Positions 2,336 through 20,212 of a DNA stretch of 40,000 nt are shown in pieces. The translations under genes and the position numbers were made by a program. The stretch's first letter is position 1. Each line of letters opens with the position of its first letter. Origin of the DNA: Patescibacteria group bacterium (GTDB taxonomy: Bacteria > Acidobacteriota > Terriglobia > Acidiferrales > UBA7541); NCBI GenBank assembly GCA_035533975.1, contig DATLSU010000020.1, positions 37,181 through 77,180 on the forward strand, given 5' to 3'. The notes under the pieces were generated by a model that had not been told where the DNA came from, searched no databases, and worked only from the letters and a program-made list of their open reading frames with translations.

Positions 2336-2433
2336 GCGGGATCCTCCTTCCCGTGCGGCGAGACGCGTTGTAGCAATTGGAGACGATACCGCGCAGCAGG
2401 CCGCAACGATGTTAGGCTTCGTTTCCAACCCCC

Positions 2434-2447
2434 GTCAACGCGAGCAG
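2434..2447. repeat. Left target-site duplication, gtcaacgcgagcag
   Basis: Identical 14-mer in direct orientation at 15795-15808, immediately outside the inverted repeats. Length is ambiguous at 14-17 bp because ccc precedes both copies. Confidence 0.75.
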
Positions 2448-2480
2448 GGGATAGGAGATAGAGCCGCGCAAAACCGGCCC
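2448..2480 (+). repeat. Left terminal inverted repeat of casposon-like element
   Basis: gggataggagatagagccgcgcaaaaccggccc matches the reverse complement of 15762-15794 at 29 of 33 positions, the first 17 perfectly. Weaker similarity continues about 40 nt inward. Confidence 0.75.
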
Positions 2481-2558
2481 TCAACATGTCGTGGGTCGGC
2501 GGCTGGGCGGACGCAAGGGAGGAATTGCACTGGGCAAGCATGCGAGAAGTATGGTGCG

Positions 2559-2975
2559 TTATGGCAGAAAATAGCATGGAAATCGCATGCTTATTCCCAA
2601 CCGCTCTGGAAGTTGCATCCTCGTGACTTTTTCAATCACAGGTGGCAAGTCTATGTGGTAATTCTGGGACAGCTGAAACGCTGCTTCATTATAGAATTCA
2701 ACCACCTGAAAATTGCTACCGAATCTCCTCTCAAACGTGTTGTCATCATAAAATGCAAATGGATCAAGAAAATACACCTCGACCATCCCCTTAATCACCA
2801 ATCCGCGTTCAGCAGCACTCGCTAGCGGACCAAACCGTTGACGCAGCAACATCATAGTTTTCAGATTGTCTTCCGAAAGGCGCATGGTGCGATATTGCGC
2901 ACCGTTCAGGATGTCCTCACGAGTGAAACCTATGACAGAAAAAACATCTGCATTCTTAAACTCAGGTTCTGCCAT
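2559..2975 (-). CDS. Hypothetical protein, 138 aa, last gene of the leftward operon
   Basis: ATG start with GGGAG upstream. Lies 27 nt downstream of the HEPN gene on the same strand. No motif recognised. Confidence 0.55.
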   Translation of the reverse strand: MAEPEFKNADVFSVIGFTREDILNGAQYRTMRLSEDNLKTMMLLRQRFGPLASAAERGLVIKGMVEVYFLDPFAFYDDNTFERRFGSNFQVVEFYNEAAFQLSQNYHIDLPPVIEKVTRMQLPERLGISMRFPCYFLP

Positions 2976-3002
2976 TTGCTCTATACTCCCATGCGGCGAA
3001 TG

Positions 3003-3731
3003 TCAGTCAAGGTTTTCCCTAAGAAGACTATCTAAATCACTTTCATTTCGTAGGCGCTCCCCGGTTTCGGCATCTAAGGCTGCGAGAGACAATCTATTGA
3101 GTATTTCTTCCCGGTGATCTCTGCCGCGCAGGTAAAGCACAAAGAATCGAAGAATTGCCAGACGGATCGGAGAAGCCCACCGTTCGCATTCCTCATGTGT
3201 GACAAACTTGCCCTCAAGGTAAGGATCCACATCGTACTGGCCATGCACTAATTGACTTCTGCGTGAGTAGAACTTCTTTATTTCACGGAAAATGTTGGCT
3301 CTCTCTTCCGGTGTGGTTCCCACAAGCTGACTCACGCTCTGCGCAATGCGAAATGTGAATTCACTTTTGTCATTTGGCGAAAGTAGCGATTCGAGGGCAA
3401 TGGCTAAACTGATTAGTCTGTCGGCTGGCTTGTCCTGCGTGTGACTGAATTCAAAATAATCTCCGGCGCGATAACTGGACTGACGCAAGCTGCTACGGAG
3501 GTCGTTTATTCGATCAAGAAACTTCGGGTGCTGATATAGCGCCCACCAGCGGGTGACGGTATCTCGCTCATCTGCGTTAAGAGTGTAAAATCGACGACCG
3601 CCTTCATATGGGAAACGACGAGGATTCCCGATAAAGAAAACTCCCCACTTGCGGATTTGGTTGACCCATTCCGGCAGGAAGTGAGGCGCTGCATAATCAA
3701 TGTGAACTACTCCATCCTTGAAGTATTGCAA
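3003..3731 (-). CDS. HEPN domain protein (Apea/ApeA-like), probably the C-terminal part of a frameshifted ~470-aa gene
   Basis: LISLAIALESLL ... FRIAQSVSQLVG ... KKFYSRRSQLVHG contains the Rx4-6H HEPN motif in its usual helical context. The only start candidate is TTG, without an RBS. The frame opens directly at the A7 tract. Confidence 0.6.
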   Translation of the reverse strand: MQYFKDGVVHIDYAAPHFLPEWVNQIRKWGVFFIGNPRRFPYEGGRRFYTLNADERDTVTRWWALYQHPKFLDRINDLRSSLRQSSYRAGDYFEFSHTQDKPADRLISLAIALESLLSPNDKSEFTFRIAQSVSQLVGTTPEERANIFREIKKFYSRRSQLVHGQYDVDPYLEGKFVTHEECERWASPIRLAILRFFVLYLRGRDHREEILNRLSLAALDAETGERLRNESDLDSLLRENLD

Positions 3732-4420
3732 CGCGTGGAGGAAAAGCTCGGCCTTGTTTTTTTCTCAAATAGCCACTTGACGGGCTCTTCACACGGCCCT
3801 TCCTGTTCCGAGACGATGAAAAACTCACCCGTGCCAGGGGGATTGAAGAAGGATACCGCAGAGGTCTCGCCGAGTATTTTTGAGATGGTAGGGCCGCCGA
3901 GGCGCTCCATCCTCACGTCTCCGAATTTCAGACTCGGTTCTTCGGCATGAAAGTTGAACACGTGACACAGTGATATTGCCTTGAAGCGTCCCTCCCCATA
4001 AATGGTGGCATCAAATCGCTGAAAGAGTTCCTCCAATCTCTCCTGGGGTGCACCGTCGTTGATCAGCAATGCAGCAGGACTCACAAACCCGACATCGAGA
4101 CAGTGAGCGAGGGGACCGAGACCAACACAACATTCTCTTAATTGCCTATCTTGAGCCAATATATCCGAAAGCGTTGTCCGCACTCGGTCACCCTCGAATC
4201 CGGCAGTGGAGAATTGTCCGCGCCTAGTCTCCAGGAACTTGGCTTGTTCCGCATCAGCAGGCTCCATGACCCAAGGGAAAGCGAGATACAGAAATGGCGA
4301 GGCGGCATCTGGAATGATTGTTTCTGTCCGCGTTTTGATGGTTGCCACCACGCGTGCCTGCGCGATGAGAAATTCTTTCAATTGTGAGTATTTCTCGGGG
4401 GTTGTATTAGTTGTGGACAT
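3707..4420 (-). CDS. Hypothetical protein, probable N-terminal part of the HEPN (ApeA-like) gene
   Basis: ATG start 50 nt downstream of the PolB stop. The ORF overlaps the HEPN ORF by 25 nt in another frame. Its tail after the A7 tract (TRPSFSSTRCNTSRME) looks like out-of-frame read-out. Confidence 0.55.
   Translation of the reverse strand: MSTTNTTPEKYSQLKEFLIAQARVVATIKTRTETIIPDAASPFLYLAFPWVMEPADAEQAKFLETRRGQFSTAGFEGDRVRTTLSDILAQDRQLRECCVGLGPLAHCLDVGFVSPAALLINDGAPQERLEELFQRFDATIYGEGRFKAISLCHVFNFHAEEPSLKFGDVRMERLGGPTISKILGETSAVSFFNPPGTGEFFIVSEQEGPCEEPVKWLFEKKTRPSFSSTRCNTSRME
3757..3763 (-). other. A7 homopolymer (minus strand GAG AAA AAA ACA) at the junction of the two ORFs; candidate -1 frameshift site or indel
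   Basis: In the -1 frame a TGA lies immediately 5' of the tract. After the tract that frame reads NKAELFLHALQYFKDG and continues into the HEPN ORF. Confidence 0.5.
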
Positions 4421-4470
4421 AGCATCACATTTCCTAACTTAAGATGAAAAGCCCAGCGCCGTATTCTACA

Positions 4471-7400
4471 TCAAGACTGGTTTATGGGCGTGTGTCCAGT
4501 TCTTCCCACTATATCGATGAGGCGCATCCGGTGTGATCGACGCGGCCTGCTCCGCGCGGCCCTGATCTCTTTCAGCGCACTCGGTGACATACCACTCTTT
4601 TTCACGAGGACCGACAGCGGTATTTTCTTCAACGCGGGCAGGATTGTCATTTGCCACTCATCCCGCTTGGGGTCCGGGTATTCGGTGTAAACCCCGCGCT
4701 CATCGTGAATCAGCCCGGCTTCTACATCTTCCAGACGGTTCGATTCTTTGCCGATACACTCGATGTGCTCAATTCGAATATGCCTTCGATACAACAGGCC
4801 AACGGTTTGTTTGACACAGGGGTTTCCGTTTGCATCGGCGCATTTTGATTCCGGGTGAAACTCGTATTCCTGCAAAACGTCGCCGTAGGTTTTGACGCGA
4901 GCGCAGTGCCTGGCGCCGTGGTGCCCTGCCGTTGTGATCCCGAATTCATTTCCCGAGTACAGGTCAGTCCAATCCATGCGCATCCATTTCATTGGATTTG
5001 ATTCGTATGGTGCGATGAGATGAAATCGTGCAGGGTCCACACCGACGGGATGGCCCAGGGGACTGATGTGGCACGTCAAAAGAAAATTGAACGGTTTGAT
5101 TTGGTCGCTGTATTTCTTGCTCTTGTTGAGCCGGGCAAAGGACCGCATAACGGTGGGGCTACTGATCGTCACGCGCCCCACGGCAGGTGATCCCTCGAAT
5201 CCCATTTTCCCCGTGCTCATGCCGAGCGAACGGCGCACGATGTTAAGCCACGCCTGCCTGATCCAGTCCCGGTCTTCACTCTCGGGATCGGTCGGATTCA
5301 ACAGATGCCCGAGGCCATGCTCTGACCATCGAAGCAACACAGGTTCACCCCCGCCATCCTGCAGAAAGAGTGCGTATCGTTTGGCTGAAATTGCCAAGCA
5401 GTACAGCTGCCGCTGACGACCAGTTTTCGGATCGAAATTGTCATCTTCTATTTTGAGAACGGACCCCGGCACTGCGCTGCGGTCGTAAGGGTTGAGCGCA
5501 GCGAAGCTCTCAGCAATCTCTCTCACTTGTGCCCATGACAAGGCCTTGATGGCTTCGCGGCCATCCTGCATCTGATACGGTCCACCAGGACATGGCACAA
5601 GTCCTCCATGCTCAGTGACCACAATCGCCATTGAATCTGTATCCTCCATCGCGTTCGTGCCACCCAATTCAGTGACTGAGTGTTCCAATAAGGCCAACAT
5701 GAGACGTGCCGCGCCTGTAATCAGCGAAGCGAGTGGAGGGAAGCAATATTCGCCCGGCACCTCTGGGTGAGCGACACGGCAGGCGAAGGGGTCTGCGTCA
5801 ATCCCGTGGCACGTCACGTTTGACTCTCGGTCAGCTTCTTGGCGGTTCATCTCCGCATAGATTCCATAGCTGGTCGAATTCGCGAGGACTTTTAGCGCTT
5901 TATCGAGCCGTCTTTTCTCAATGTCGGTGAGGTCGGAACGTGATGACAAGTGTTTCCGTTCCTCGATTACGACTCTGAAAAAATCCTCACGTCTGGGATC
6001 GACTTCGATAGCACCACGCAGCTTCACAGGCGCGAGGCCTGGAAGCGTACCTTGAGGCTCCATACGGAAGGCATCGACAATTTTGGGTATGCGCCCGGTC
6101 AAAAGCACAGACGCGACAACATCCGGGAGTGAGAACCACAACGCCACGCTGTCCTCGCTGCCCTTGGCGTAGAGATGATTGATGCCAATCTGCCAATCGT
6201 TGCCTCCTGTGCCGTATCTCGCCCGCGTCGGCAAAATATCCCCATTCGGAATGACTTTCACGAACGCAGGCAAGCGTAGCCACGTCTCGGGCTTGAAAAG
6301 ATCGGCAGGCTTCAAATGTCTTAGGAATTCCTCAATTTCACTTTGGCAGTGCTCGACAACCTTAACCTCGTTCGCTATGACGTATTGCCAAAGCCCCATG
6401 AGGCTGTTGACCGTGGGATACATCGAAAGAAAATCCACGTATACAACCGGAACCGGCACTTTGCGGATGTGGGCGCTGGCACGTCCACCGAAGAAAGCAG
6501 ACTGTGCGTATCCCAAATATTTCCTGGGAAAATCTGGCTGTCTTTCAAGGATGGGGATGATCCCCATGGCCCGCAGGTATGCCTTCCCGATGGAAGCAGG
6601 AGAATACGCCCTTGTGGCCTGAAGACTGATCGGATGTTTTTGATACTCTTCGATCAGCTTGCACGCCAATTCAGATGTTGCCAGAACGTCGCGCCGGTTG
6701 TAATCGATGTATTCCTCAGTGACTTCTCCGTGATGGTTTGTTTTCTGCTTTCCATGTGCGACACCGAACGCCTCGCACGCAGATTCCAGAGAATAGCCCC
6801 GGTCGGTTAGTGCAAATGCGAGTGTGCGCAAATCCAGCAAGTGACCGCGAAATTTATATCCCGGTTCAGGCTGACCGCTCGGCGATCCTTCGGGGATCAT
6901 ATCGGTCCGGTCCGCATTGTTCCGTGCTGTGAACCCCTTCAACGCACGCTTGCTATCGATCTGCTTGATGCCGATTCTGGGCCGGAAGTGATTTGTTCTT
7001 TGTCGCCCGTTCTTGTCCGTGTATTGCCACATGCCAAGTGAAAAGCCGCCAGCGAATCGGCCCCGCGCCGGTGCACAATCGTGGGCGATTCGCGACAGGT
7101 CAAACGGCTGATTGAAGGCAACGACAAGACATCGGCCTTTGTATGCAGCGAAATAAAGCACGTCCAGGAACTCGTTCAGGGATAACAAGCGCAGTTCCGG
7201 TCTGCCTTCCTGACACGTCTCGGCTCGGTGCGTTGCAACGTAGCGTTCCAGGATTTCGCGTTCCTTCGCTGGCAGTTCATCGGCGTATAAAAGTCCCTCT
7301 TCCAAGCATTCCCCGTTTACGAAAAACCGATAGCTTCCAAACGTCAAGCGTTGGGTGGGGTCGGTGCGTGTTTCTGTGTCGAAGACAAGCATTGCGGAAG

Positions 7401-7503
7401 GCAATTCGGGTGCCTGCTGTTTTCTGTTACTCCCTTTCGCGTCCGGTGGCTCCGGGTAAACGCGAACGGCAATAGGTAGCGATATTGGCTGATGAATCGA
7501 CAT
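4471..7503 (-). CDS. Family B DNA polymerase with 3'-5' exonuclease domain, 1010 aa
   Basis: ExoI MLVFDTET (D42, E44). ExoII NQPFDLSRI. ExoIII YIDYNRRDVLAT. Motif A DFLSMYPTVN. Motif B KVLANSTSYGIYAE. Motif C AMEDTDSMAIV. KxY-like AISAKRYALF. Confidence 0.9.
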   Translation of the reverse strand: MSIHQPISLPIAVRVYPEPPDAKGSNRKQQAPELPSAMLVFDTETRTDPTQRLTFGSYRFFVNGECLEEGLLYADELPAKEREILERYVATHRAETCQEGRPELRLLSLNEFLDVLYFAAYKGRCLVVAFNQPFDLSRIAHDCAPARGRFAGGFSLGMWQYTDKNGRQRTNHFRPRIGIKQIDSKRALKGFTARNNADRTDMIPEGSPSGQPEPGYKFRGHLLDLRTLAFALTDRGYSLESACEAFGVAHGKQKTNHHGEVTEEYIDYNRRDVLATSELACKLIEEYQKHPISLQATRAYSPASIGKAYLRAMGIIPILERQPDFPRKYLGYAQSAFFGGRASAHIRKVPVPVVYVDFLSMYPTVNSLMGLWQYVIANEVKVVEHCQSEIEEFLRHLKPADLFKPETWLRLPAFVKVIPNGDILPTRARYGTGGNDWQIGINHLYAKGSEDSVALWFSLPDVVASVLLTGRIPKIVDAFRMEPQGTLPGLAPVKLRGAIEVDPRREDFFRVVIEERKHLSSRSDLTDIEKRRLDKALKVLANSTSYGIYAEMNRQEADRESNVTCHGIDADPFACRVAHPEVPGEYCFPPLASLITGAARLMLALLEHSVTELGGTNAMEDTDSMAIVVTEHGGLVPCPGGPYQMQDGREAIKALSWAQVREIAESFAALNPYDRSAVPGSVLKIEDDNFDPKTGRQRQLYCLAISAKRYALFLQDGGGEPVLLRWSEHGLGHLLNPTDPESEDRDWIRQAWLNIVRRSLGMSTGKMGFEGSPAVGRVTISSPTVMRSFARLNKSKKYSDQIKPFNFLLTCHISPLGHPVGVDPARFHLIAPYESNPMKWMRMDWTDLYSGNEFGITTAGHHGARHCARVKTYGDVLQEYEFHPESKCADANGNPCVKQTVGLLYRRHIRIEHIECIGKESNRLEDVEAGLIHDERGVYTEYPDPKRDEWQMTILPALKKIPLSVLVKKSGMSPSALKEIRAARSRPRRSHRMRLIDIVGRTGHTPINQS

Positions 7504-7507
7504 TCGC

Positions 7508-8008
7508 TTAACGCCTGGGTGTGAATTTTCTTAGGTCAGTCTTCTCCCACCATCCCGGCCCGTGCTGTTCAACCATCGATGCGTTATACGTTTCAAGCAT
7601 GTTTGCAATCCGAAGGAGCAATTCCTTCATGAGATAAACGAGAGTGTCTACAAAGCCCCGGATGGACGCGGCTGCCGCAAGCACCGGATTTCCGTCCGGG
7701 TTTTCCAGAGTGTCTTTTGGCCAGTCGTGTTGGGCTGGGCTCAGGACCGCACGGTGATCATTGACCGGCACGGGGACGGTCGCATTGCTATTCGACTTGC
7801 CCGCGACGTGGTGCGCATCGCATATGCTCTTCCCCTGCCCCTTCCGCTGGCAGGCTGCGCAGATGGTGGGGTTGCTTCCCTTTATGAGTGCTTCCGGTCG
7901 GCTCTCACCGCACGCGCATTTCTTGCCCGCTCCGATCCGCCGCGCCGCACTAGCTTTGCGCTGGTATTTTCTGATTGGATTACGCGGTGGTGGTTCCTTC
8001 GGCATCAT
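7508..8008 (-). CDS. HNH-type nuclease, 166 aa
   Basis: CACG...CAAC cysteine pairs followed by DAHHVAGKSNSNATVPVPVNDHR (an HH...N...H pattern). Start ATGATG overlaps the upstream stop (ATGA). Stop lies 4 nt before the PolB ATG. Confidence 0.6.
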   Translation of the reverse strand: MMPKEPPPRNPIRKYQRKASAARRIGAGKKCACGESRPEALIKGSNPTICAACQRKGQGKSICDAHHVAGKSNSNATVPVPVNDHRAVLSPAQHDWPKDTLENPDGNPVLAAAASIRGFVDTLVYLMKELLLRIANMLETYNASMVEQHGPGWWEKTDLRKFTPRR

Positions 8009-8550
8009 GCAACCCCCGCATAGAGAGATTCGAACGACAAAGCGCCAGCCGACGCCAGTCGGTCCAGAACTTCCAGATCGGTCAGCAGTGGGATTCGCTT
8101 TCGGCTGGCGTCCATGATGCGCTTCTTCCTGAATTTCTCCAGAGCTGACGCATCCCCCGTTTGCAGATATTTCTGAACGGCTGCCCAATACTGACCAAGA
8201 CGGCTCGCCTGCCGAGAATCGCGAAGGGCAATTTCTCTCACCCCCTCAGGGGAAGGAATGGTGAGGACCCGAAGCAGCGTATCAGTGGGTCTTGCTGCGT
8301 ACCGCCCATTGCGGCCCTTGCGCAAGGCAGGCTTGGCCCAGCGGATCACCGTGCGCGGACCAAGACCAAATTCCTGGGACGCCTGTGTGAGCGACACCCC
8401 GTCGGCTCGCATCTTTGAGACCGCGTGGGTGATGCGGTTCCAGCGGTCTTGGGATCGGGCAGGCATGGCGGAAAATTGCTTTAGAGTTCGCGGTGCTACA
8501 AGCCGAATTCTCGTTGACCGACGTTTGCGATTTTTTCTTTTTGCTTTCAT
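8005..8550 (-). CDS. HTH DNA-binding protein with basic N-terminus, first gene of the leftward operon
   Basis: MKAKRKNRKRR basic tail. HTH-like segment VSLTQASQEFGLGPRTVIRW. Start set at the internal ATG 8550. Confidence 0.6.
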   Translation of the reverse strand: MKAKRKNRKRRSTRIRLVAPRTLKQFSAMPARSQDRWNRITHAVSKMRADGVSLTQASQEFGLGPRTVIRWAKPALRKGRNGRYAARPTDTLLRVLTIPSPEGVREIALRDSRQASRLGQYWAAVQKYLQTGDASALEKFRKKRIMDASRKRIPLLTDLEVLDRLASAGALSFESLYAGVA

Positions 8551-8607
8551 GCAGACAGGTTTTCGCGAACGCGAGGTAAACTCAATCAAGCGTCATTGTA
8601 TTTGGGG

Positions 8608-9399
8608 ATGAAATTGTCGCAACCTAATGAAAACAAAAGCCGAGGCAGACCGAGAAAAACTACCGATGAAGAACTTTTACGCTACGAGGGACTTTGGGTT
8701 GACACTTTCACTGGCCTGCGCGACGGCACCTCTGAGGCTGAAACCGTCGTTCCCGCCAGATCGGGCATGTTTGTCAAATCGAGCGGGGGAGAACGCGAAC
8801 GGGTGTATTCACACGTTCCGGGCGAAGCCCCGCGCGTTGTGCATGAGCCAAGGTTTTCCACCACTCCCGACGAGAAGCGGCGTTGGACACTTCGCAAACA
8901 AGAAGAGGAAAAGCAGTTTGAAAAGACCATCCTGACGCCGCATGTTGACATTGCTCCAGCCATTCCCGATGAACGCAGCTTATGGGAAGCACTGAAGCGA
9001 GCACAGACAGCTGCTCAGGTCCGGAGAATTTGCAGTCGATCCAAAATATGGCTGAGGCCTCGAAGAATTGAGTTTCCGGACGGCGGTTTCGTGGAGTGGT
9101 GGGCCTTTCGGAGAGTCTTGTACCAAAGAGCGCAGGAATTTTGCCGAGCGAAACTCGACCCCCGGTATCCTGGGCGGGACCAGAGGGCATCGGGAGACTA
9201 CCGGAGAATCGAATATTTCGCTCGTGTGCTGTCAGGCCTAACCGTTGGGCTTGCGCCATCAACCGCCGTGGAGCGACTTAGAAGAATGCGGCATCCGGGA
9301 GAATGCGGGTGTTGGCGCTGCTTCCTGGGGATCGGCTCACAGTACGGTAAGAGCTTGGTACAACTTTTGTGCGAGCGCGGCCCCGCATGGCGAATATAA
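8608..9399 (+). CDS. Hypothetical protein, 263 aa, first gene of the rightward arm
   Basis: Long ORF divergent from the HTH gene. Basic N-terminus SRGRPRKTTDEE and C-terminal CGCWRC. No family recognised. Confidence 0.55.
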   Translation: MKLSQPNENKSRGRPRKTTDEELLRYEGLWVDTFTGLRDGTSEAETVVPARSGMFVKSSGGERERVYSHVPGEAPRVVHEPRFSTTPDEKRRWTLRKQEEEKQFEKTILTPHVDIAPAIPDERSLWEALKRAQTAAQVRRICSRSKIWLRPRRIEFPDGGFVEWWAFRRVLYQRAQEFCRAKLDPRYPGRDQRASGDYRRIEYFARVLSGLTVGLAPSTAVERLRRMRHPGECGCWRCFLGIGSQYGKSLVQLLCERGPAWRI

Positions 9400-9446
9400 G
9401 CGTTGTTCACTCAAGCAAAGAAAGGTTGACTGATACCTCTAAATAG

Positions 9447-9460
9447 ACTACATATGTAGT
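9447..9460. promoter_or_regulatory. Perfect 14-bp palindrome actacatatgtagt, candidate operator
   Basis: Self-complementary 14-mer abutting the GTG start of the Xis-like HTH gene. TTGACT lies at 9425-9430 upstream. Confidence 0.4.
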
Positions 9461-9682
9461 GTGAGTATACGCTTAACGACAGTCGAAACCGCTACGAAAA
9501 CGGGTCTCAATCGTGTCACCCTTCAGGAGTGGATTCGAACGGGCCGAGTGAAGGCTCCAAAGCTGGTGCTCCGCAACGGTAGGGCGGTGCGCCTCTGGTC
9601 TCAATCTGACATAGAGAGTTTGCAGCGGGTGAAGGCAGAAATCTACCGCAAAGGTAGAGGACGGAAGAAAAGCAAAGCATGA
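9461..9682 (+). CDS. Excisionase/MerR-superfamily small HTH protein, 73 aa
   Basis: LTTVETATKTGLNRVTLQEWIRTGRVKAPKL...RLWSQSDIESL matches the HTH_17/Xis-type pattern. GTG start. Confidence 0.65.
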   Translation: MSIRLTTVETATKTGLNRVTLQEWIRTGRVKAPKLVLRNGRAVRLWSQSDIESLQRVKAEIYRKGRGRKKSKA

Positions 9683-9751
9683 CAGAGCAGGACGCGCCGG
9701 TGCAGCAGCACCGGACGCGCCCCTAACCACCAAAGGAGGCGTCACACTCCA

Positions 9752-11392
9752 ATGGCAGCTACGCAGACGTTACCGCAGGTCCCGCAGGTCGGCAATTTCG
9801 AGGTTCCATCCTCAACCCCACCGGAACTCGGCATTTCAAAGAGCCAAACCGTAGAAGTGCTCACGCCAAGACGCGGTGTGGTTACTCTTTTTGGTTACGG
9901 GATCAGGGTCCGCGTGGATCGGGGCCACCTGATTCTTGAGGACGGGATCGGTGCTGCCCGTCGCGCGGGACGCTTCTCCCGCGTGAGGCATGGGCTAAAG
10001 CGTGTGGTTGCCATCGGGTCGGATGGCATGGTTTCGCTTGCGGCGCTCCGCTGGTTGGCTGACCAGGACGCGGCCTTTGCGATGCTCGACCGTAACGGCT
10101 CAGTGCTTGCCGTGACCGGCCCCGTTCGCCCCTCTGATGCCCGCTTGAGACGCGCTCAGGCTCTTGCAGTGCAATCCGGAACCGGCCTGCGAATTGCGCG
10201 ACAATTGGTGAATCAGAAAGTCGCTGCCCAGGAGCGGCTGGCCAGCGATGGCCTGCAAGCCCCGGCTGTTGCGCAAACGATTCGCGAAGCTCGGTCTGCA
10301 TTGGCTTCGGCTGCGACGATTGATTCCCTTCGCGCACAGGAAGCGCAGGCAGCCCACGCTTATTGGTCCGCATGGCGCAACATCCCGCTCACCTTTCCTA
10401 AGCAGGATGCCCGCCGCGTGCCGGATCACTGGCTGACTTTCGGGACGCGCATTTCTCCGCTTTCGGGTTCCCCCCGCCTTGCCGCCAATCCGGCTAATGC
10501 CATCCTGAATTACCTGTATGCCATCCTCGAAACGGAAGCCCGGCTTGCCGTTGCAGCACTTGGCCTCGATCCCGGTCTTGGCGTTATGCACCTCGATAGC
10601 CGGACACGCGACAGCTTGGCTTGCGATTTGATGGAACCGATCCGGCCACAGGTGGACGCCTATTTGCTCGAATGGATCACCCGCGAGGCATTCCGCCGGG
10701 AGTGGTTTTTTGAAGAGCGCAACGGCAACTGCCGCCTCATGGCTTCACTCGCTACCCAGTTGGCCGAAACCGGGCCGACTTGGGCAATGGCCGTTGCGCC
10801 CCTGGCGGAATGGGTGTCCCACACGCTGTGGAGAAGCATCTCCAAGTCAGTTCGCCGAAATTCGCCAGCAACAAGGCTCACCCAGTCTCACAAGCGCGGG
10901 GCCAAAGGAGCGACTCTCATGCCACCAGCCAAGCCCCTGCCCAGGCCTCCAGCTGTTTGCCGGGATTGCGGTGCCCCAATCAAACCAGGCCGGAATTACT
11001 GCGCTTTCTGCGGAGTTGTTTTTTCGAGGGCGGGTCTCATAGAGGCTGCAAAGCTCGGGCGAGCGGCCGGGCACAGCCCAGAGGCGCGTGCCCGCCAAGC
11101 TAAGAAGCAACGCCGCAATGCCGCTGCACTGAAGAGGTGGAATCCCACGGAGCAACCCGAGTGGCTGACGGAAAATTTCTATCGCGAAGAGATTCAGCCG
11201 CATCTTGCGGGTGTCACCGTACCGGCCATTGCTTCCGCCCTTGGCCTTTCCCAGCCTTACGCGGCGAGGATTCGGGCCGGTAAACAGTGCCCTCATCCAA
11301 GACATTGGCAAGCGTTGGCGCGGCTAGCAGGAGCTTCGCGGGATCGGAAGACACATCTTCAATGGTCGGCAAGCCGAATCGGAAGCCTATAG
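9752..11392 (+). CDS. cas1: Cas1 homolog (putative casposase) with C-terminal zinc ribbon and HTH, 546 aa
   Basis: NAILNYLYAILETEARLAVAALGLDPGLGVMHLDSRTRDSLACDLMEPIRPQVD carries the Cas1 catalytic E, H and D/E positions. CRDCGAPIKPGRNYCAFCG (10958-11014) is a CxxC...CxxC ribbon. VPAIASALGLSQPYAARIRAG is HTH-like. Confidence 0.9.
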   Translation: MAATQTLPQVPQVGNFEVPSSTPPELGISKSQTVEVLTPRRGVVTLFGYGIRVRVDRGHLILEDGIGAARRAGRFSRVRHGLKRVVAIGSDGMVSLAALRWLADQDAAFAMLDRNGSVLAVTGPVRPSDARLRRAQALAVQSGTGLRIARQLVNQKVAAQERLASDGLQAPAVAQTIREARSALASAATIDSLRAQEAQAAHAYWSAWRNIPLTFPKQDARRVPDHWLTFGTRISPLSGSPRLAANPANAILNYLYAILETEARLAVAALGLDPGLGVMHLDSRTRDSLACDLMEPIRPQVDAYLLEWITREAFRREWFFEERNGNCRLMASLATQLAETGPTWAMAVAPLAEWVSHTLWRSISKSVRRNSPATRLTQSHKRGAKGATLMPPAKPLPRPPAVCRDCGAPIKPGRNYCAFCGVVFSRAGLIEAAKLGRAAGHSPEARARQAKKQRRNAAALKRWNPTEQPEWLTENFYREEIQPHLAGVTVPAIASALGLSQPYAARIRAGKQCPHPRHWQALARLAGASRDRKTHLQWSASRIGSL

Positions 11393-11728
11393 CATCGAAG
11401 ACCCCCTATCTCGATCACGGCTGGACGCCTTCGCATTCCGCTCATTCTTCAGTAATTAAACAAGTGTTGTCGGAAAACAAAAGTTTTCTGTGGAAACTAT
11501 TTTCTAATGTTATTTCACTGGACGAAGGTCTTGTCATCCTGAAATACTTTTTCAGGACATAGAAAGTAGGTGGCAGGCAGCCAATTCAGGTGTCTCCCCT
11601 CCGCAGCGACTCAAGGAAACACGTCTTCCGATGGAAGGCGGGTTTCCAAATGAATTCCGTTTGTGATGGTGAGGGTCATGCCGCTGGCAGACTGCCCATT
11701 GCTGCAACTACCGGCTTGAGGAGAACAA

Positions 11729-11941
11729 ATGCCGAGAAGAAACTTGGAATCTCAAATCGTGCGGCTCCGACAGGAAATCGAAAGGCTCTCTGCTGAGCAC
11801 GCGGAGAAGATGAAGCAACAATCGAGCACAGCGAATGCCAAGCTGCGCGCAGCAGAGGCGAAGCGAGCCGAAATCCTGGCTCGCCGCATACGTCAACTGA
11901 ATGAGATGCTGGACGCCCTTCAGCGTGCGCAGTCAAATTGA
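11729..11941 (+). CDS. Small coiled-coil protein, 70 aa
   Basis: Heptad-like charged sequence LESQIVRLRQEIERLSAEHAEKMKQQ...LNEMLDALQRAQ. ATG start. Confidence 0.45.
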   Translation: MPRRNLESQIVRLRQEIERLSAEHAEKMKQQSSTANAKLRAAEAKRAEILARRIRQLNEMLDALQRAQSN

Positions 11942-12081
11942 GTGCTTGCCCACACGGGAAGCACGATCAAAAATGACGTCGAACACCCACCGGGACAGTG
12001 AATGAACTATCGAACCGAACGATGGTGCAATATATGAGTTCCGGTCGACTGAGCACCGATCCGTTCCCTGCCCCCTCTGGC

Positions 12082-12369
12082 CTACCCCAGGTCGAGAAGC
12101 GCAGCTTCGGCCCTAAGGCTTTCCAGAGTGTCTCGCAGGAGTTTCCTCGACTCTACACCGAACGATTTGGCCACAGCCTCAACGTCCTCCATGATCCAAG
12201 CCGCCGAGATGTCTACCGCCTCAGAAGGAGCAGCTTCACCATCGCCGCAGGTCTTCACTTGCCGTTTCGAAACGGTTAAGCGGAGCGAGCTCCCCCGTTC
12301 ATTACTACGCATGAGGGCCACCTTTGTACAAGAATTGTTCCGAGATGGAGACAAGAACATGTTTGGCAC
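12082..12369 (-). CDS. Hypothetical small protein, divergent from the XRE gene (strand assignment uncertain)
   Basis: A 95-aa ORF. A competing 150-aa ORF on the plus strand (12128-12580) covers the same DNA and cannot be excluded by eye. Confidence 0.3.
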   Translation of the reverse strand: MPNMFLSPSRNNSCTKVALMRSNERGSSLRLTVSKRQVKTCGDGEAAPSEAVDISAAWIMEDVEAVAKSFGVESRKLLRDTLESLRAEAALLDLG

Positions 12370-12591
12370 GCTATCACTTTTCGCCTGGAATGCTGAGAGC
12401 TATACCCGTGGGAAAGTGGCGACCTTGCCAAGTGCCTTTGGAGTAAACGTTCCAGCAGTGACGTTCGACTCAATAGCACGAAAGTGCCATGGATTGCGCC
12501 ATGTCCCGAACCTCCGCGTACTGGGCTGGCAATACCTTCAAGTTATAATGCTCTTGCTTTGCTCTGTAGCTCCGCGATAATCGTTTTCATT

Positions 12592-12945
12592 ATGATCATT
12601 GGCGAACGCATTAGAACCTTGAGGGAACTGAAGGGGCTCTCGCAGGGCGATATCGAGAAACGCAGCGGCCTGTTGAGATGCTACATTTCCCGCGTCGAAA
12701 ACGGTCACACCTCGCCGTCACTGGAAACCCTGGAGAAGTTCTCACGGGGGCTCGAAGTACCCCTACATGAACTGTTCTATGAGGGCGAGGAAGCTCCGGT
12801 TTTGTCTTCGCTAACCGCTGAAGACATCACCTTGCAGCCAAATAGCGGCCCGTCACTGCACCGACTCGCGGAACTGTTCAGAGGGTTGGGTCAGCAGGAC
12901 CGCCAGATCGTGCTTCAGACAGCCGAGCGGTTAAGCAAGATTTAG
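12592..12945 (+). CDS. XRE-family HTH transcriptional regulator, 117 aa
   Basis: IGERIRTLRELKGLSQGDIEKRSGLLRCYISRVENGHTSPSLETLEKFSRGLEV is a canonical Cro/C1 HTH. Start set at ATG 12592. Confidence 0.85.
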   Translation: MIIGERIRTLRELKGLSQGDIEKRSGLLRCYISRVENGHTSPSLETLEKFSRGLEVPLHELFYEGEEAPVLSSLTAEDITLQPNSGPSLHRLAELFRGLGQQDRQIVLQTAERLSKI

Positions 12946-13022
12946 CTTGTGCTGGCGCAGGTATGCTAGTGGGCTTGCAAGCTGACAGGGTGTTCCCAGC
13001 CCCCAAATCGAGCAAGGAAAGA

Positions 13023-13535
13023 CTACTCGCAAGCTCTCCCATAAGCCGGACGATCCCCTGCGTCTTCGGCCTGTGCCTGTGTCATGTATTCGCCGTGCTT
13101 CGTGGTCCCATACCACCTCGTGCCGGGGCAATGATAGACGCCCGAGGACGTATTGACCCAAACCTTTACGTTGGGATTGCCTTGATGCTCAGTCTTACCC
13201 GTTGTGCTCCCATGCTTCTTGGACGTGTTGGGCGAGGCAGACTCGCCTCCGCCCGACTGACAGGTTCTTCCGTATGCGGGGCGGTAACCCTTTTGTTGGG
13301 CCTCACCCTGCGCCATGTATTCGCCGCTCTTTGTTGCCCCATACCACCTCGTGCCAGGGCAGTGGTAAACCCCAGAATGTGTGTTGACCCAGACCTTGAT
13401 CTTGGAATTGTCCTGACTCTGTGAATGAGAGCGAGCTGTGTCCGACAACCCGTGCGGAATAGTGTTGGCTGGAACAGATGCCGGGACGAACAGCAAGGCC
13501 ACGATGAGGCCAATGGTTGCCAGCAGCCGACGCAT
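13023..13535 (-). CDS. Secreted protein with two tandem ~55-aa Cys-containing repeats
   Basis: Signal peptide MRRLLATIGLIVALLFVPASVPA. AAGGAGG lies 5 nt upstream of ATG 13535. Repeat KVWVNTxSGVYHCPGTRWYGxTKxGEYMxQxxAxxxGxRPAYGRxC occurs twice. Confidence 0.8.
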   Translation of the reverse strand: MRRLLATIGLIVALLFVPASVPANTIPHGLSDTARSHSQSQDNSKIKVWVNTHSGVYHCPGTRWYGATKSGEYMAQGEAQQKGYRPAYGRTCQSGGGESASPNTSKKHGSTTGKTEHQGNPNVKVWVNTSSGVYHCPGTRWYGTTKHGEYMTQAQAEDAGDRPAYGRACE

Positions 13536-13869
13536 AGCCACCTCCTTGTGATCTAAGAAAAGACCCCTGGGGCTAGAGAACCTTTTAACACCAATCGCGA
13601 GGTGTGGAACACATAAAGGTGATTTTGTTTTCTCAGGAAAGACCGGCGCAGGATCGATCCGAGATGCCCCTTCCTATCGGGTTAGATTGAATCGTTCGAG
13701 TGCGGGAATAGCGGTTAATCCTTGCGACATAATCCATTGGAAACGAACGTGTCGCGTCGTAGCATATCTGCCAACGGACGCTGTTGATGTACAGGGGGGC
13801 GCATCCTGGAAACGTGCGGCCTTCTTTCTCCTGCTGCGGCCTGAATGGCCAGGAGGGTAACAACCCCAA

Positions 13870-14178
13870 ATGACGAAAGAGCAATTGGGCGAAAGCCTCA
13901 GGTCGAGGCTGGCTCAGAAATGCACGCGCGGAGAAATGGACGGGAATCTGCCCAGTGGCAGGGAGTCTTTCTCGGAAAACCTGAAGAACACGAACGATGA
14001 CAACCTGATAGTTGGCTTCCTGAAGTGCGCCGTATGCGGTCAGATGAGCATGTCAGTGGAAGAAGCCGTGCGGTTCGCAGGGCATTGCGAAACCGCTGAT
14101 GATTGGGTCAGGTTCCTGGTTGGTTGGCAACAGCAGTTCGGTTGGTGTTGTCACGACATCGGCAAGCCGAATTGCTAG
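13870..14178 (+). CDS. Hypothetical Cys-rich protein, 102 aa
   Basis: ATG-initiated ORF in an AT-richer region. CAVCG and HCE/WCCH cysteine/histidine clusters. No family recognised. Confidence 0.4.
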   Translation: MTKEQLGESLRSRLAQKCTRGEMDGNLPSGRESFSENLKNTNDDNLIVGFLKCAVCGQMSMSVEEAVRFAGHCETADDWVRFLVGWQQQFGWCCHDIGKPNC

Positions 14179-14417
14179 GGGTACCCAGAGACATTGGGAG
14201 CCTATTGCACGGCGTTTTTCACTTAGGCCGGAGTTAACTCCTAGTCAACAGGTACCTCACATCAAGGCAAAGTCTCCGGCTCCGGAAACGTTGTATTCCC
14301 CCGAAACGAGAAATAGGTGAAAACAATACCTACATTGGTGATAGGGGTGTATAAGATATGCGTTGCCAGTGTTAATGGATGTCGGCCTTGAAAGTTCGGC
14401 CGAAAGGAGTACTGAGA

Positions 14418-15239
14418 ATGAAACACACATGGAGAATTGCACTCGCTTTGCTGTTGGGAGCGAGCACGGTGATGGCGCAGAATCCGGTGACGACGCCTGC
14501 GCCGGAACCCAAGCCAGCAGCGACTCCTGGGATCGTTCTGCAAGACGGCACGCCCGTGAAGCTCCGGTTGACTGAAACTATCTCGTCGGCAAGCGCTCAC
14601 GTAAACGACACCGTTCCCTTTGAAGTACTGGAGCAGATCAAGGTAGGCGGTCTCCTCGTCATCCCCAAAGGCAGCATGGCCTGGGGCACAGTGACCGAGG
14701 CGCAGCATAAACGGAGACTTGGCCGGGCAGGAAAACTCAACATCAGCGTTGTCGCCGTAAGGTTGCAGGACGGCGAAAAAGCCGCGCTCCGCGCCGTCAA
14801 GGATGTCAAAGGCGGCGGCCACCAAGGAGCGATAACGGGGGCAATCGTTGCGACAAGCATTGTATTTTTCCCGGTGGCCCCTCTGTTTCTTCTAATTCAT
14901 GGCAAAGATATAACCATCCCGCAAGGTACCGAAATTACGGCGTACATAAACGGGGACATGCCAATTGATCCGTCTAAATTCGGTGCGACGAATGCACCAG
15001 CGAATGCCGTAGCCAGCCCTGAGACCGTCCTGATTCAATCTGTGCCTACGGGAGCGGACATAACGATTGACGGTAACTATGCGGGGAGTACACCCTCGAC
15101 CCTGAAGCTCGGTCCTGGCCAGCACACAATTATTGTCAGCAAGTCCGGGTTCAAGCCTTGGCAGCGTACACTCAGCACTGAACCCGGCGCAAATGTCACT
15201 GTTGGCGCGACGTTGCAGGAGGACCAGAAAAAACAGTAA
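14418..15239 (+). CDS. Secreted PEGA-domain protein
   Basis: AAGGAG RBS before ATG 14418. Signal peptide MKHTWRIALALLLGASTVMAQ. C-terminal IQSVPTGADITIDGNYAGSTPSTLKLGPGQHTIIVSKSGFKPW is PEGA-like. Confidence 0.8.
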   Translation: MKHTWRIALALLLGASTVMAQNPVTTPAPEPKPAATPGIVLQDGTPVKLRLTETISSASAHVNDTVPFEVLEQIKVGGLLVIPKGSMAWGTVTEAQHKRRLGRAGKLNISVVAVRLQDGEKAALRAVKDVKGGGHQGAITGAIVATSIVFFPVAPLFLLIHGKDITIPQGTEITAYINGDMPIDPSKFGATNAPANAVASPETVLIQSVPTGADITIDGNYAGSTPSTLKLGPGQHTIIVSKSGFKPWQRTLSTEPGANVTVGATLQEDQKKQ

Positions 15240-15761
15240 AGAAAGGCTGTTGCATAACGCCCAACGAATCAGCCGCACGACAATATCGCGCCCGGCGTCG
15301 GTTCGACGGTGGAGTCTCGCGGAGGGAAAGAAAATTCCGCACTTGAAAATCCCGTGGAAGAACCGCCGGGACTGAGGGGAGGGCAAACGCGGTACGTTCC
15401 CTACAAGGTCGAGGCTACCTGTCGCCCGGAGTCCCCGGAGTTGGGTGCAGGGTAGAGGCGGGCTGGCTGGGCCGCAGCCTCTTTCTTCTATCATAGGAGT
15501 AATCTCGGAAGCCTTAGCTCCCGTCAATAGCTCGCGAGCTTTGTCAGACAGACCGCCACCCTCGCCCAATAGGTCTGCTAGCTTGAAATCTGCCATCGCA
15601 CACTGCGTGGTCGCTTTCAGCAGGTCCAGCAGAACGGCATTTTCCCCCGCGAGCACCCTTGAGCCTGCCACCCATGCCTCCCCCCCCCAGTGCGCGCACG
15701 GCCCAGGCCACACCAATGAGTGCCCTTGTGCCCACCCTCGCCTCAACCACAAGCCGTAGGG

Positions 15762-15794
15762 GGGCCGGTTTTGGCGCGCTCTATCTCCTATCCC
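15762..15794 (-). repeat. Right terminal inverted repeat of casposon-like element
   Basis: The reverse complement reads gggataggagatagagcgcgccaaaaccggccc. It matches 2448-2480 at 29/33 positions. Confidence 0.75.
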
Positions 15795-15808
15795 GTCAAC
15801 GCGAGCAG
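15795..15808. repeat. Right target-site duplication, gtcaacgcgagcag
   Basis: Perfect direct copy of 2434-2447. Confidence 0.75.
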
Positions 15809-16006
15809 TTGCCGAACAAGAACGGAAGCCGGATCGGAGAAACTCGGATTTCGAGGCCTTTGTCCCCGGGCGCTTGCGGCCGGCGGGCTTATAGCGCGCT
15901 TGCGCGGGACGCCGGGCGGAAATCCTGTCATAATCGATTCCACTTGCAGGACCGGCTGGGACCGTGTGAACGCAGCGGAAAATTCGAAACAATGAGGGGG
16001 CAGGGC

Positions 16007-16744
16007 ATGAATCGCACGCGAATTTCACGAAAGTCGGGGTTCGCTTGGCTGGCGGCGATGGGCGCTTGCGCCACGCTGCTGGTCGGCGCGTTTATCGTCT
16101 GGTCCGCCGCTCAAGCGCAGGACGGAATGCTTCGAGAAGGGCCGGCGCCGCGGCAGATGGGCGCTCCCGGAGGGTCGGGCGCCCGGAAAACGGCGCCGCC
16201 GAAGCCATTCCCTTTCACGTTGACGATCGAGGACGGCACGAGCGTCTCCTACCGGGTGCGCGAACAGCTCGTGGGCATCGATTTCCCGGATGACGCCGTG
16301 GGCAGATCGACGGCCGTCACGGGCACGATCGTGTTCAATCGGGATGGCTCGATCGACAGCAGCCGGTCGAAGCTCACCTTCGATCTTCGCACCCTCAAGA
16401 GCGATCAGCCCATGCGCGATGGTTTCATCCAGAAGCGCACCCTCCAGACCGAACGGTATCCCACGGCCGTGTTCGTGCCGAAGACGATCGAGGGAATGCC
16501 CGATCCGCTCAAAAGGCAATTTGGATTCCGCCTGACGGGCGATATGACCATCCATGGCGTCACCGCGCCGGTCAGTTGGCAGGGCTACGCCACGGTCGAC
16601 AATAACAGCACCCTCGTCGCGGGCCGCGCGTCGACCGAATTCAAGTTCGAAACGTTTGGCCTCGCCGTTCCCAAGCTCGCTCGCTTGCTGAGCGTGAACG
16701 ACAACATAGCGCTCGAAGTGGAATTTCGCTGCAAGGTCAATTGA
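16007..16744 (+). CDS. YceI-like periplasmic (polyisoprenoid-binding family) protein
   Basis: TM/signal segment FAWLAAMGACATLLVGAFIVW. LKSDQPMRDGFIQKRTLQTERYPTAVF and GDMTIHGVTAPVSW are YceI-like. An alternative ATG lies at 15992. Confidence 0.75.
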   Translation: MNRTRISRKSGFAWLAAMGACATLLVGAFIVWSAAQAQDGMLREGPAPRQMGAPGGSGARKTAPPKPFPFTLTIEDGTSVSYRVREQLVGIDFPDDAVGRSTAVTGTIVFNRDGSIDSSRSKLTFDLRTLKSDQPMRDGFIQKRTLQTERYPTAVFVPKTIEGMPDPLKRQFGFRLTGDMTIHGVTAPVSWQGYATVDNNSTLVAGRASTEFKFETFGLAVPKLARLLSVNDNIALEVEFRCKVN

Positions 16745-18252: not shown

Positions 18253-18357
18253 GGGCCGGACCGCGCGCAAAGAAAATTATTGGCTCAATTCCGGCAGCCG
18301 GTGGCGCACGGTGAGGCTCATCATGGGCGCGATCGCATCCCATTCCGCGAACAATTT

Positions 18358-19035
18358 CTACGCGCCGTTTTGGCCGAGTACCTGCGCTGGCAAAGGTCCC
18401 CCGGCCAGATCGGAGAACTTGTTCACGCAGGATACGGTGACAAAATCGTTGTCATTGCCCCCGTACACTCGCCGGTAGGTTTCGAAATACTCGCCCGCCT
18501 TTTTGTAGATCGGCAGAACTTCGGTCCTTACGAAATTCCGGTACTCGCCGATTTTGCCCGGCAAGACGCGGCGGCGGGCAAACACGCAAACCGGCGGATG
18601 CTTTCCCGCGGGCGTGTTGCTGAGTTCCGGCAGCGGAGCAATGACGTATACGTGAACGCTTTGGGTGTACTGGCCCAAACTGTTTTCCTGCTGCTCGGCT
18701 TTTTTCTTGCCGAGGCCGATGACCCGCGCAGGCTGCCCGCTGGGTGAGGTGAATCTCACCAAGGGCCCCACAGTAGTGTATTGATACTCGTTACCAAAGA
18801 CCGTTTGATAAGCCTCCTGTATTTCGGACCCTCCCTTTTTGAGCGCGGGAATCAGCACGTTTTTCACACCATCGACCCAGTCGGTCCTCATGCCGGGCTT
18901 CACGGTCACGACGGTCACGCGTAGATACGCGGGCCGCGCAGGCGCGGACTGAGCCAGGCCCACGCCAGGAGTCAGCAGGATGCCGCCGGATGCGATCAGG
19001 AAGCCAAACAGAACCAGCCTTCGATTCGTTCTCAT
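18358..19035 (-). CDS. Secreted two-repeat ferredoxin-like (ABM/dimeric alpha-beta barrel-like, tentative) protein, paralog 1, ended by an in-frame TAG
   Basis: About 70 percent identical by eye to the 19202-19957 product. Signal peptide. Homology continues for 26 codons past the TAG at 18358-18360, to a TAA at 18278. Confidence 0.7.
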   Translation of the reverse strand: MRTNRRLVLFGFLIASGGILLTPGVGLAQSAPARPAYLRVTVVTVKPGMRTDWVDGVKNVLIPALKKGGSEIQEAYQTVFGNEYQYTTVGPLVRFTSPSGQPARVIGLGKKKAEQQENSLGQYTQSVHVYVIAPLPELSNTPAGKHPPVCVFARRRVLPGKIGEYRNFVRTEVLPIYKKAGEYFETYRRVYGGNDNDFVTVSCVNKFSDLAGGPLPAQVLGQNGA

Positions 19036-19201
19036 GGCCTTCTCCCTTTCTCGGCTGTGATTTCGCGCAGCCCTGAGGCGTCTTGCTCGCAATGGCGTAA
19101 AAGTCCGGTGAAAATGGACCCAAACGCCAGACAACCCTCTGCTCGCAGCGTCCCACGCCAGCAAGCCGCCACCTGAACGCTCACAGATCCTCGGGAAAAA
19201 A

Positions 19202-19957: not shown

Positions 19958-20212
19958 GGCTTTCTCCCTTTCGCGGTTTTGCATTTGCGGCAGCCCGGAG
20001 GCGCCCACGGCGGATAGCGTAAAAGGCCCATAAAAAGAGCCCGCCAAATTTGAGCTGGTTTTTCCTATATCCAATTCCCGCCCGGCCCGTCAGCTTACAC
20101 CTGGCCGCTTCGAATACAAAGCCTCAAGGGCCGATCGGAGCGAGCGTGCCCGGTCCGGCATGCTATGCTCCAGCATGCAGCCGAACGAACCATTCAGATG
20201 AGGAGGAAGATA

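Follow-up and report, generated by a model that had tools for sequence, protein, structure and literature searches.

A family-3 casposon and its Cas1-family integrase at a putative sigma70-type promoter of an acidobacterial-type chromosome

The gene considered here is the open reading frame (ORF) at 9752-11392 of a 40,000-nucleotide stretch of contig DATLSU010000020.1 (positions 37,181 to 77,180 of the forward strand; assembly GCA_035533975.1), hereafter the window, and is named 'CRISPR-associated endonuclease Cas1' in public annotation. Our analysis indicates, with a probability of about 0.88, that it encodes a casposase, a Cas1-family integrase, belonging to an intact family-3 casposon in an acidobacterial-type chromosome. 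The locus adds a member to an acidobacterial branch of family 3 that is large and hitherto undescribed, and its interest lies in promoter-specific, polar integration. The fusion of a zinc ribbon and a domain of the helix-turn-helix (HTH) type to Cas1, which the initial annotation had implied to be new, is not: this architecture has been known since 2014 from the family-3 casposase of AceAut-C1, a Cas1 whose C-terminal part includes both an HTH and a zinc-binding domain (Krupovic et al. 2014, PMC4046053).

The casposase ORF is one unbroken frame from the ATG at 9752 to the stop at 11392 (546 amino acids, aa). Residues 47-334 match the Pfam Cas_Cas1 model (E 4.4e-42), the NCBIfam cas1 model also matches (E 2.7e-35), and a phmmer search of PDB sequences returned the A. 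fulgidus Cas1 4N06 (E 1.9e-21) and the M. mazei casposase 6OPM (E 1e-19). The full-length AlphaFold model (predicted local distance difference test score, pLDDT, 69; confident over residues 130-370 and 400-535) had 6OPM as its best PDB match in Foldseek (E 8e-12), the kind of structural comparison that the initial annotation had proposed as a check. Alignment to 6OPM, whose active site is E162/H232/E247 (PMC6977970), and to 4N06 places the predicted active site at E197 (LRAQ-E-AQAAHAYW), H280 (GVMH) and D292/E295 (DLMEP). The initial annotation was thus right that a Cas1 core with its catalytic positions is present, and right about the MH histidine and the DLMEP acidic pair; the glutamate that it took from ETE (260-262) lies inside the NYLYAILETEARLAV helix, conserved and distinct from the catalytic glutamate, E197. 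E197, H280, D292, E295 and ETE are unchanged across 41 homologues of 60-79% identity, and the predicted catalytic residues are retained.

9752-11392, plus strand: casposase (Cas1-family integrase), 546 aa, identified by its ORF, Cas1 profile matches, homologues and structure match
9872-10846, plus strand: N-terminal domain and catalytic domain of Cas1, roughly residues 41-365, from alignment to 6OPM and 4N06 and from invariance
10340-10342, 10589-10591, 10625-10627 and 10634-10636, plus strand: predicted catalytic codons E197, H280, D292 and E295

This gene lies within a complete casposon, defined by terminal inverted repeats (TIRs), a target-site duplication (TSD) and composition, with a guanine-plus-cytosine (GC) content of 55% as against 63% in either flank. 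The 14-bp TSD compares with the median of 15 bp that serves as a criterion for the casposon superfamily. The comparisons below cover 84 related loci (L numbers); in 25 of these, the window included, the TIRs are clean and the 14 bp of the TSD repeat exactly, with junctions among L009-L084. The TIR tip GGG[A/G]TA is common to 24 related elements and to NitAL212-C1, and the transferred strand of all related TIRs ends in ...TA(T/C)CCC-3', which in the window element is ...TATCCC-3'. A 17-nt exact direct repeat was considered as a 17-bp TSD and rejected for a TSD of 14 bp with symmetric TIRs: the repeat reaches 17 nt because the extra CCC is flanking sequence that equals the TIR tip.

2448-15794, no strand: complete casposon, 13,347 bp
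2434-2447, plus strand: left TSD copy, 14 bp, GTCAACGCGAGCAG
15795-15808, plus strand: right TSD copy, 14 bp, exact match to the left copy
2448-2480, plus strand: left TIR, 33 bp, GGGATAGGAGATAGAGCCGCGCAAAACCGGCCC, matching the right arm at 29/33 positions
15762-15794, minus strand: right TIR, 33 bp, 3' end ...CTCCTATCCC-3'

The element at 2448-15794 is a complete casposon with the core genes of families 2 and 3: Cas1, an HNH-like gene, a gene for a small HTH protein and one for a family B DNA polymerase (PolB) that bears a C-terminal HTH. In the sequence of PolB a full set of exonuclease and polymerase motifs can be read (FDTET, YNRRD, DFLSMYP, KxxxNSxSYG, DTDS, KRY), and 74 of 83 related loci have a PolB homologue no more than 10 kb from the casposase; a PDB sequence search intended to type the polymerase gave no matches with either the single sequence or a 26-sequence profile. 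The putative HNH-like ORF, assigned by its motif and by a position like that of the HNH gene of AceAut-C1, is kept in 18 loci and has weak family matches. The 194-aa HTH ORF is the counterpart of what is called the 'HTH protein' in casposons of families 2 and 3, and it sits where AceAut-C1 has its HTH protein. It has tblastn matches in 49 related loci, with strand and position kept in 46, and shares part of its span (8005-8589) with the HNH-like ORF in its long form (7508-8188).

4471-7503, minus strand: PolB, 1010 aa, with a weak PF03175 match and invariant motifs
4501-4662, minus strand: C-terminal HTH of PolB, residues 948-1001, from hhalign to the casposase HTH
7508-8188, minus strand: putative HNH-like nuclease ORF (called gene 7508-8008), from an HH...N...H motif
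8005-8589, minus strand: HTH protein, 194 aa, missed by public annotation, with weak HTH_23/HTH_28 matches
8596-9399, plus strand: 267-aa protein beside the casposase, no family match, homologues in 8 loci only

Core genes are conserved over 49-83 loci and cargo is not. Among the casposon ORFs no integrase or transposase family other than Cas1 was found, although some related elements carry a serine recombinase as cargo; the element combines a catalytic Cas1, a PolB, TIRs and a TSD with no other recombinase or transposase, as defines a casposon. PADLOC and NCBIfam returned nothing for the cargo ORFs except one XRE regulator. The cargo ORF at 13023-13541 (minus strand) contains an internal 161-nt repeat that gives two copies of KVWVNTxSGVYHCPGTRWYG, with a weak OCRE/ArfC-like match only.

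The features of a CRISPR adaptation module, a Cas2 partner and an adjoining repeat-spacer array, were absent. Tandem Repeats Finder (TRF) detected no CRISPR or tandem array in the 40 kb, and the called genes and major ORFs, with a non-exhaustive scan of the small ORFs at 21-40 kb, yielded no cas2, effector or other cas family; the initial annotation had said as much. Its further suggestion of a casposase rather than a CRISPR Cas1 is upheld by the element context, by 6OPM as best structural match and by similarity to family 3 (226 bits to AceAut-C1, against 64-80 bits to family 1, family 2 and CRISPR Cas1). The reference Cas1 cores of AceAut-C1, NitAL212-C1 and Nitrosopumilus in this comparison were taken from the supplementary alignment of Krupovic et al. 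2014 (PMC4046053).

AceAut-C1, family 3: 45% identity, 226 bits to the window Cas1 core
NitAL212-C1, family 3: 34% identity, 172 bits to the window Cas1 core
Nitrosopumilus casposase, family 1: 26% identity, 64 bits to the window Cas1 core
M. mazei casposase 6OPM, family 2: 74 bits to the window protein
A. fulgidus Cas1 4N06, CRISPR: 80 bits to the window protein

Together with the closest Cas1 similarity, a bacterial host and the presence of the HNH-like and HTH proteins are the traits of family 3. Those of family 2, an archaeal host, a tRNA-gene target and a Cas1 with an HTH only, were not found, while the pairing of related HTH domains on Cas1 and PolB that was reported for family 2 is reproduced here in a family-3 element.

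The junctions of the related elements point to a shared target. The TSD has GTCAA at one end in 24 of the 25 sites (GACAA in L032), and read on the opposite strand 24 of the 25 sites show TTGAC(N), a spacer of 17-18 nt and TAnnnT, a layout found at only 10 of 275 control TTGAC sites (3.6%) of the same host flanks. Flank similarity reduces the 25 to about 16 independent sites. The -10 box is located in the flank and directed away from the element, and the genes downstream of the insertion sites likewise point away from it, in agreement with the promoter direction; these include genes that we take, from their N-terminal sequence and without confirmation by family searches, to be valS, lysS, thrS, tig, nuoB and rnpA. 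In the window the first five bases of the putative promoter sit within the left TSD copy, and the ATG of an M61 peptidase (2335), with a GGAGG ribosome-binding site, lies 72 nt downstream of the promoter.

2409-2438, minus strand: putative host sigma70-type promoter, TTGACG (2438-2433), 18-nt spacer, TAACAT (2414-2409), 9/12 matches in an independent promoter scan

As judged from these motifs, the target of the clade is a predicted sigma70-type promoter, with a TSD that comprises TTGAC, the first five bases of the -35 hexamer, and the adjoining 9 bp upstream, and the spacer and -10 box would serve as a 'leader' for insertion. The -35 box is doubled by the TSD, which leaves the predicted host promoter intact. 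An RNA gene as the conserved target was considered and rejected, a Rfam search of six loci having returned nothing at the gathering threshold. The searchable literature yielded no report of promoter targeting by casposons.

Insertion at these sites is also polar. In 12 of the 25 sites (L028, L032, L036, L040, L041, L047, L049, L054, L059, L066, L068 and L072) a solo TIR from a different casposon lineage stands at the very start of the promoter-distal flank, while a clear TIR remnant on the promoter side was seen at one site only, L065. The distal remnants imply that one promoter is used more than once and that the latest insertion comes to lie closest to it. The pattern of target and polarity parallels the target recognition of Aciduliprofundum boonei, a bipartite one of leader motif plus border (PMC6614799), and the leader-proximal acquisition of CRISPR.

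L002 showed a nested or tandem arrangement at 14860-16000, where a truncated right TIR abuts the start of another TIR, and a further TIR remnant with a matching TSD (CCCGTCCCATTGAC) about 1 kb beyond that junction.

The C-terminal extension, put at about 170 residues in the initial annotation, was found to be real and to comprise about 180 residues past the Cas1 fold. Modelled alone, residues 395-546 (pLDDT 89) form a two-strand ribbon, a long hairpin and a five-helix HTH. The four cysteines of the ribbon noted initially are real and invariant, both in the 41 homologues and in 25 further elements, but their spacing is CxxC-x10-CxxC and not x13. A run of HTH residues is likewise invariant in those 41 homologues of 60-79% identity, and strong purifying selection acts on zinc ribbon, hairpin and XRE-type HTH.

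10949-11014, plus strand: zinc ribbon, residues 400-421, C403/C406/C417/C420 (nt 10958-11011), from invariance and AlphaFold
11003-11137, plus strand: long helical hairpin, residues 418-462, joining the ribbon to the HTH, from AlphaFold models
11171-11341, plus strand: XRE/Cro-type HTH, residues about 474-530, with the invariant recognition helix S-x-P-Y-A-A-x-I-R

A domain scan detected both the HTH and the zinc-ribbon signals, each below its Pfam threshold: HTH_31 on residues 486-535 (E 1.2e-4, under the gathering score), and zinc-ribbon models with a best E of 6e-3. HTH_31 was matched by 15 of the 41 homologues (best 9.3e-7), and the XRE-type fold of the AlphaFold model agrees with the HTH-like segment first proposed from the letters. 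Foldseek gave weak XRE/Cro-type matches for the tail (E 0.09-1; template modelling, TM, score up to 0.63 over about 55 residues), and the ribbon and hairpin of the residue 395-546 model had no structural match in the PDB. Mimicry of sigma region 4 by the casposase HTH was considered and rejected, Pfam and Foldseek both assigning the domain to the XRE/Cro group. Also rejected was the idea that the C-terminal module is an independent, widespread family, as its 2268 representative matches are mostly N-truncated casposase fragments.

Profile-profile comparison (hhalign) showed the casposase HTH, residues 475-528 (11174-11335, plus strand), to be homologous to residues 948-1001 of PolB (probability 97.4%, E 1e-11, 54 columns). 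The sharing of this domain suggests that it binds something both enzymes require, and the casposon ends are the simplest candidate. In M. mazei the casposase is inactive without its HTH (PMC6977970).

If the window casposase works as those of M. mazei and A. boonei do, it would act as a tetramer that holds both 3'-OH TIR ends, bends the target and links these ends to phosphates at a distance of 14 bp; the TSD would then arise through repair of the gaps, and the PolB of the element would replicate the casposon. Within this scheme the HTH common to PolB and casposase would bind the casposon ends, and recognition of the leader or of the TTGAC border would fall to the zinc ribbon and hairpin, which are specific to the casposase, or else to the catalytic domain. 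We favour this division of labour with modest confidence, because PolB shares the HTH. The recognition helix is constant across elements with widely differing TIRs, and this agrees both with a target that does not vary and with the TIR parts that do not, the tip and the subterminal motif. It is tentatively conceivable, though we would not expect it, that acidobacterial family-3 casposases directly select sigma70-type promoters through the zinc ribbon, hairpin and HTH, taking the -10 box for a leader motif and the TTGAC of the -35 box for the TSD end nearest the leader; if true, this would be a transposase that imitates promoter recognition by a sigma factor, spares the promoter and stacks copies beside it with a polarity like that of CRISPR spacers.

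Several points weigh against the reading of the locus as a promoter-targeting family-3 casposon. The placement in family 3 comes from pairwise similarity rather than from a tree, and the N-terminal domain of the casposase (residues 1-128) is a low-confidence region of the AlphaFold model. Promoter function is deduced from sequence and gene orientation, and the -10-like motif could be a recognition motif of the casposase that only resembles a promoter element. For the window insertion, an exact 30-mer search over the reconstructed site found no empty site in metagenome contigs, and the M61 peptidase orthologues inspected in this connection were about 60% identical and not syntenic with YceI. 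The 14-bp TSD of the family-3 element NitAL212-C1 contains no TTGAC, and promoter targeting would therefore be a property of this clade and not of the whole of family 3. The HTH of M. mazei in isolation had no detectable DNA binding (PMC6977970).

Other assignments of the promoter-reading role can be envisaged. The whole C-terminal module might read the promoter leader on the -10 side and the catalytic domain the TTGAC border, the HTH of PolB then differing in specificity. That the recognition helix is invariant though the TIRs differ strongly, that the target motif is constant and that the polarity of insertion marks the promoter side as the recognised one are all consistent with such a role, as are the proposal by Hickman et al. 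of leader recognition by the family-2 HTH (PMC6977970) and the requirement of the A. boonei casposase for a leader motif (PMC6614799). We nevertheless hold it to be possible rather than probable, since an HTH of the same type on PolB has no obvious role at a host promoter, the TIRs too keep common features (GGG[A/G]TA at the tip and, subterminally, an A-tract and then a C-rich motif) and the fold is XRE-like, not sigma-region-4-like. The choice of promoter could instead be made by the 194-aa HTH protein, or through promoter-bound RNA polymerase or sigma, with the casposase tail confined to end binding or oligomerisation. The gene for this protein belongs to the core (49 loci), its family-2/3 counterparts match LuxR/FixJ-type HTHs, one homologue has a weak Sigma70_r4_2 match, combined recognition of -35 and -10 at a spacing of 17-18 bp is holoenzyme behaviour, and a Tn7/TnsD-like model was proposed earlier (PMC4046053); yet family-1 and family-2 casposases are target-specific alone in vitro (PMC8464041, PMC5137440), and sigma region 4 at the -35 box would cover the DNA to be cut, which leads us to consider this targeting by another protein unlikely. 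Attribution of the HTH to the ends and of the leader or border to the ribbon and hairpin or the catalytic domain remains our preferred arrangement.

Two further readings would make the gene something other than that of an active transposase, or divide it. An orphan or degenerating CRISPR Cas1, or a domesticated Cas1-solo instead of an active transposase, would agree with the name given in public annotation and with related loci L004 and L005, which are remnants riddled with insertion sequences (IS) and devoid of PolB; it is nonetheless very improbable for a gene situated in an element of low GC content that has a perfect TSD, intact TIRs and core ORFs that are all intact, whose catalytic residues are invariant, whose relatives occupy many chromosomal sites and whose 40-kb surroundings showed no array and, among the called genes and major ORFs, no cas2 or effector gene. 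The C-terminal 180 residues could also be imagined as a separate gene joined by a frameshift or assembly error, the database holding many short proteins with the module only. These short proteins bear the casposase linker (ATRLTQxHRR) or upstream Cas1 sequence, and are truncated fragments; more than 100 full-length homologues of 60-79% identity are colinear with 97% of the casposase query, and the same fusion occurs in 25 independently assembled genomes and was also published for AceAut-C1. A frameshift origin of the tail, which the initial annotation had named as a possible objection, has in our estimate almost no chance of being correct.

The branch to which this casposon belongs is extensive. 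The casposase has more than 5000 database matches, of which the best 120 are full-length with 61-79% identity, and a scan of one genome per species returned at least 451 matching stretches. All 79 related loci that were kept (79/79) are labelled Acidobacteriota or its orders or families, and the genes flanking the window casposon are bacterial. An identical casposase is deposited under 'Patescibacteria group bacterium'; this label is probably due to a mis-binned contig, given its GC content of 63%, its PEGA and CarboxypepD_reg genes and the acidobacterial assignment of the 79 related loci.

Some neighbouring features of these loci were recorded in addition, among them genes of defence-like and plasmid-like type beside the casposase. 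In L003, for which no TIRs were found, a MORC-like ATPase and TIR_2, ThsB-TIR and LD_cluster3 domain genes lie beside the casposase (12297-16715), and in L002 a serine recombinase, ParB/RepB, NmeDI_C and AAA_21/DUF3696 all occur within the terminal repeats (436-4969 and 12633-14525). Outside the casposon, the window contains a tandem duplication (18295-19164 and 19217-20074; 77-85% identical, 922-bp spacing), and the region 18295-20074 encodes two paralogous minus-strand ORFs of 268 and 290 aa.

The clade constitutes a very large natural family for the bacterial (family-3) casposases, and its defined target, TTGAC-N17/18-TAnnnT with a 14-bp TSD, makes the role of the C-terminal module directly testable. 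The duplicated -35 box, which preserves the host promoter, may reflect a 'safe-harbour' strategy, and the leader-like polarity of repeated insertion bears on models in which CRISPR leader-repeat units originate from casposon target sites.

Among known systems, AceAut-C1, found in Candidatus 'Acetothermum autotrophicum', is similar to the window element in that the zinc-binding domain and the HTH are both C-terminal on Cas1, in its core genes (HNH and the HTH protein, in that order, after a PolB whose C-terminal HTH is 434-Cro-like), and in its bacterial host, intergenic insertion and 14-15 bp TSD. It differs in size and ends (20 kb with 602-bp TIRs, against 13.3 kb with 33-bp TIRs) and in its cargo, and promoter targeting was not reported for it. 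NitAL212-C1, from Nitrosomonas sp. AL212, shares the TIR tip GGGGTA..., a 14-bp TSD and a Cas1 with zinc-binding domain and HTH, but its zinc-binding domain is N-terminal, the HTH being C-terminal, and its TSD, AGCCGGTACTGCCC, has no TTGAC.

The family-2 casposases of M. mazei (6OPM) and A. boonei have the Cas1 fold, the E/H/E site, the CCC-3' end and the 14-bp TSD in common with the window element, as well as a C-terminal HTH, which is needed for activity there, and a similar HTH on PolB (PMC6977970). Their target is also bipartite, with a leader motif and a TSD border (PMC6977970, PMC6614799), and the casposon of M. mazei likewise terminates in CCC (TATATCCC-3'), with terminal cytosines that are specifically contacted in the crystal (PMC6977970). 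In contrast to the window element they are archaeal, insert at the 3' ends of tRNA genes, have neither zinc ribbon nor helical hairpin and reach a similarity of about 74 bits. CRISPR Cas1-Cas2 depends on Cas2, inserts short spacers and lacks a DNA-binding module at the C-terminus, yet it is built on a homologous catalytic core and joins DNA by a staggered integration that duplicates the target (there the repeat), with an adjoining leader that sets the polarity, as is predicted for the casposase described here.

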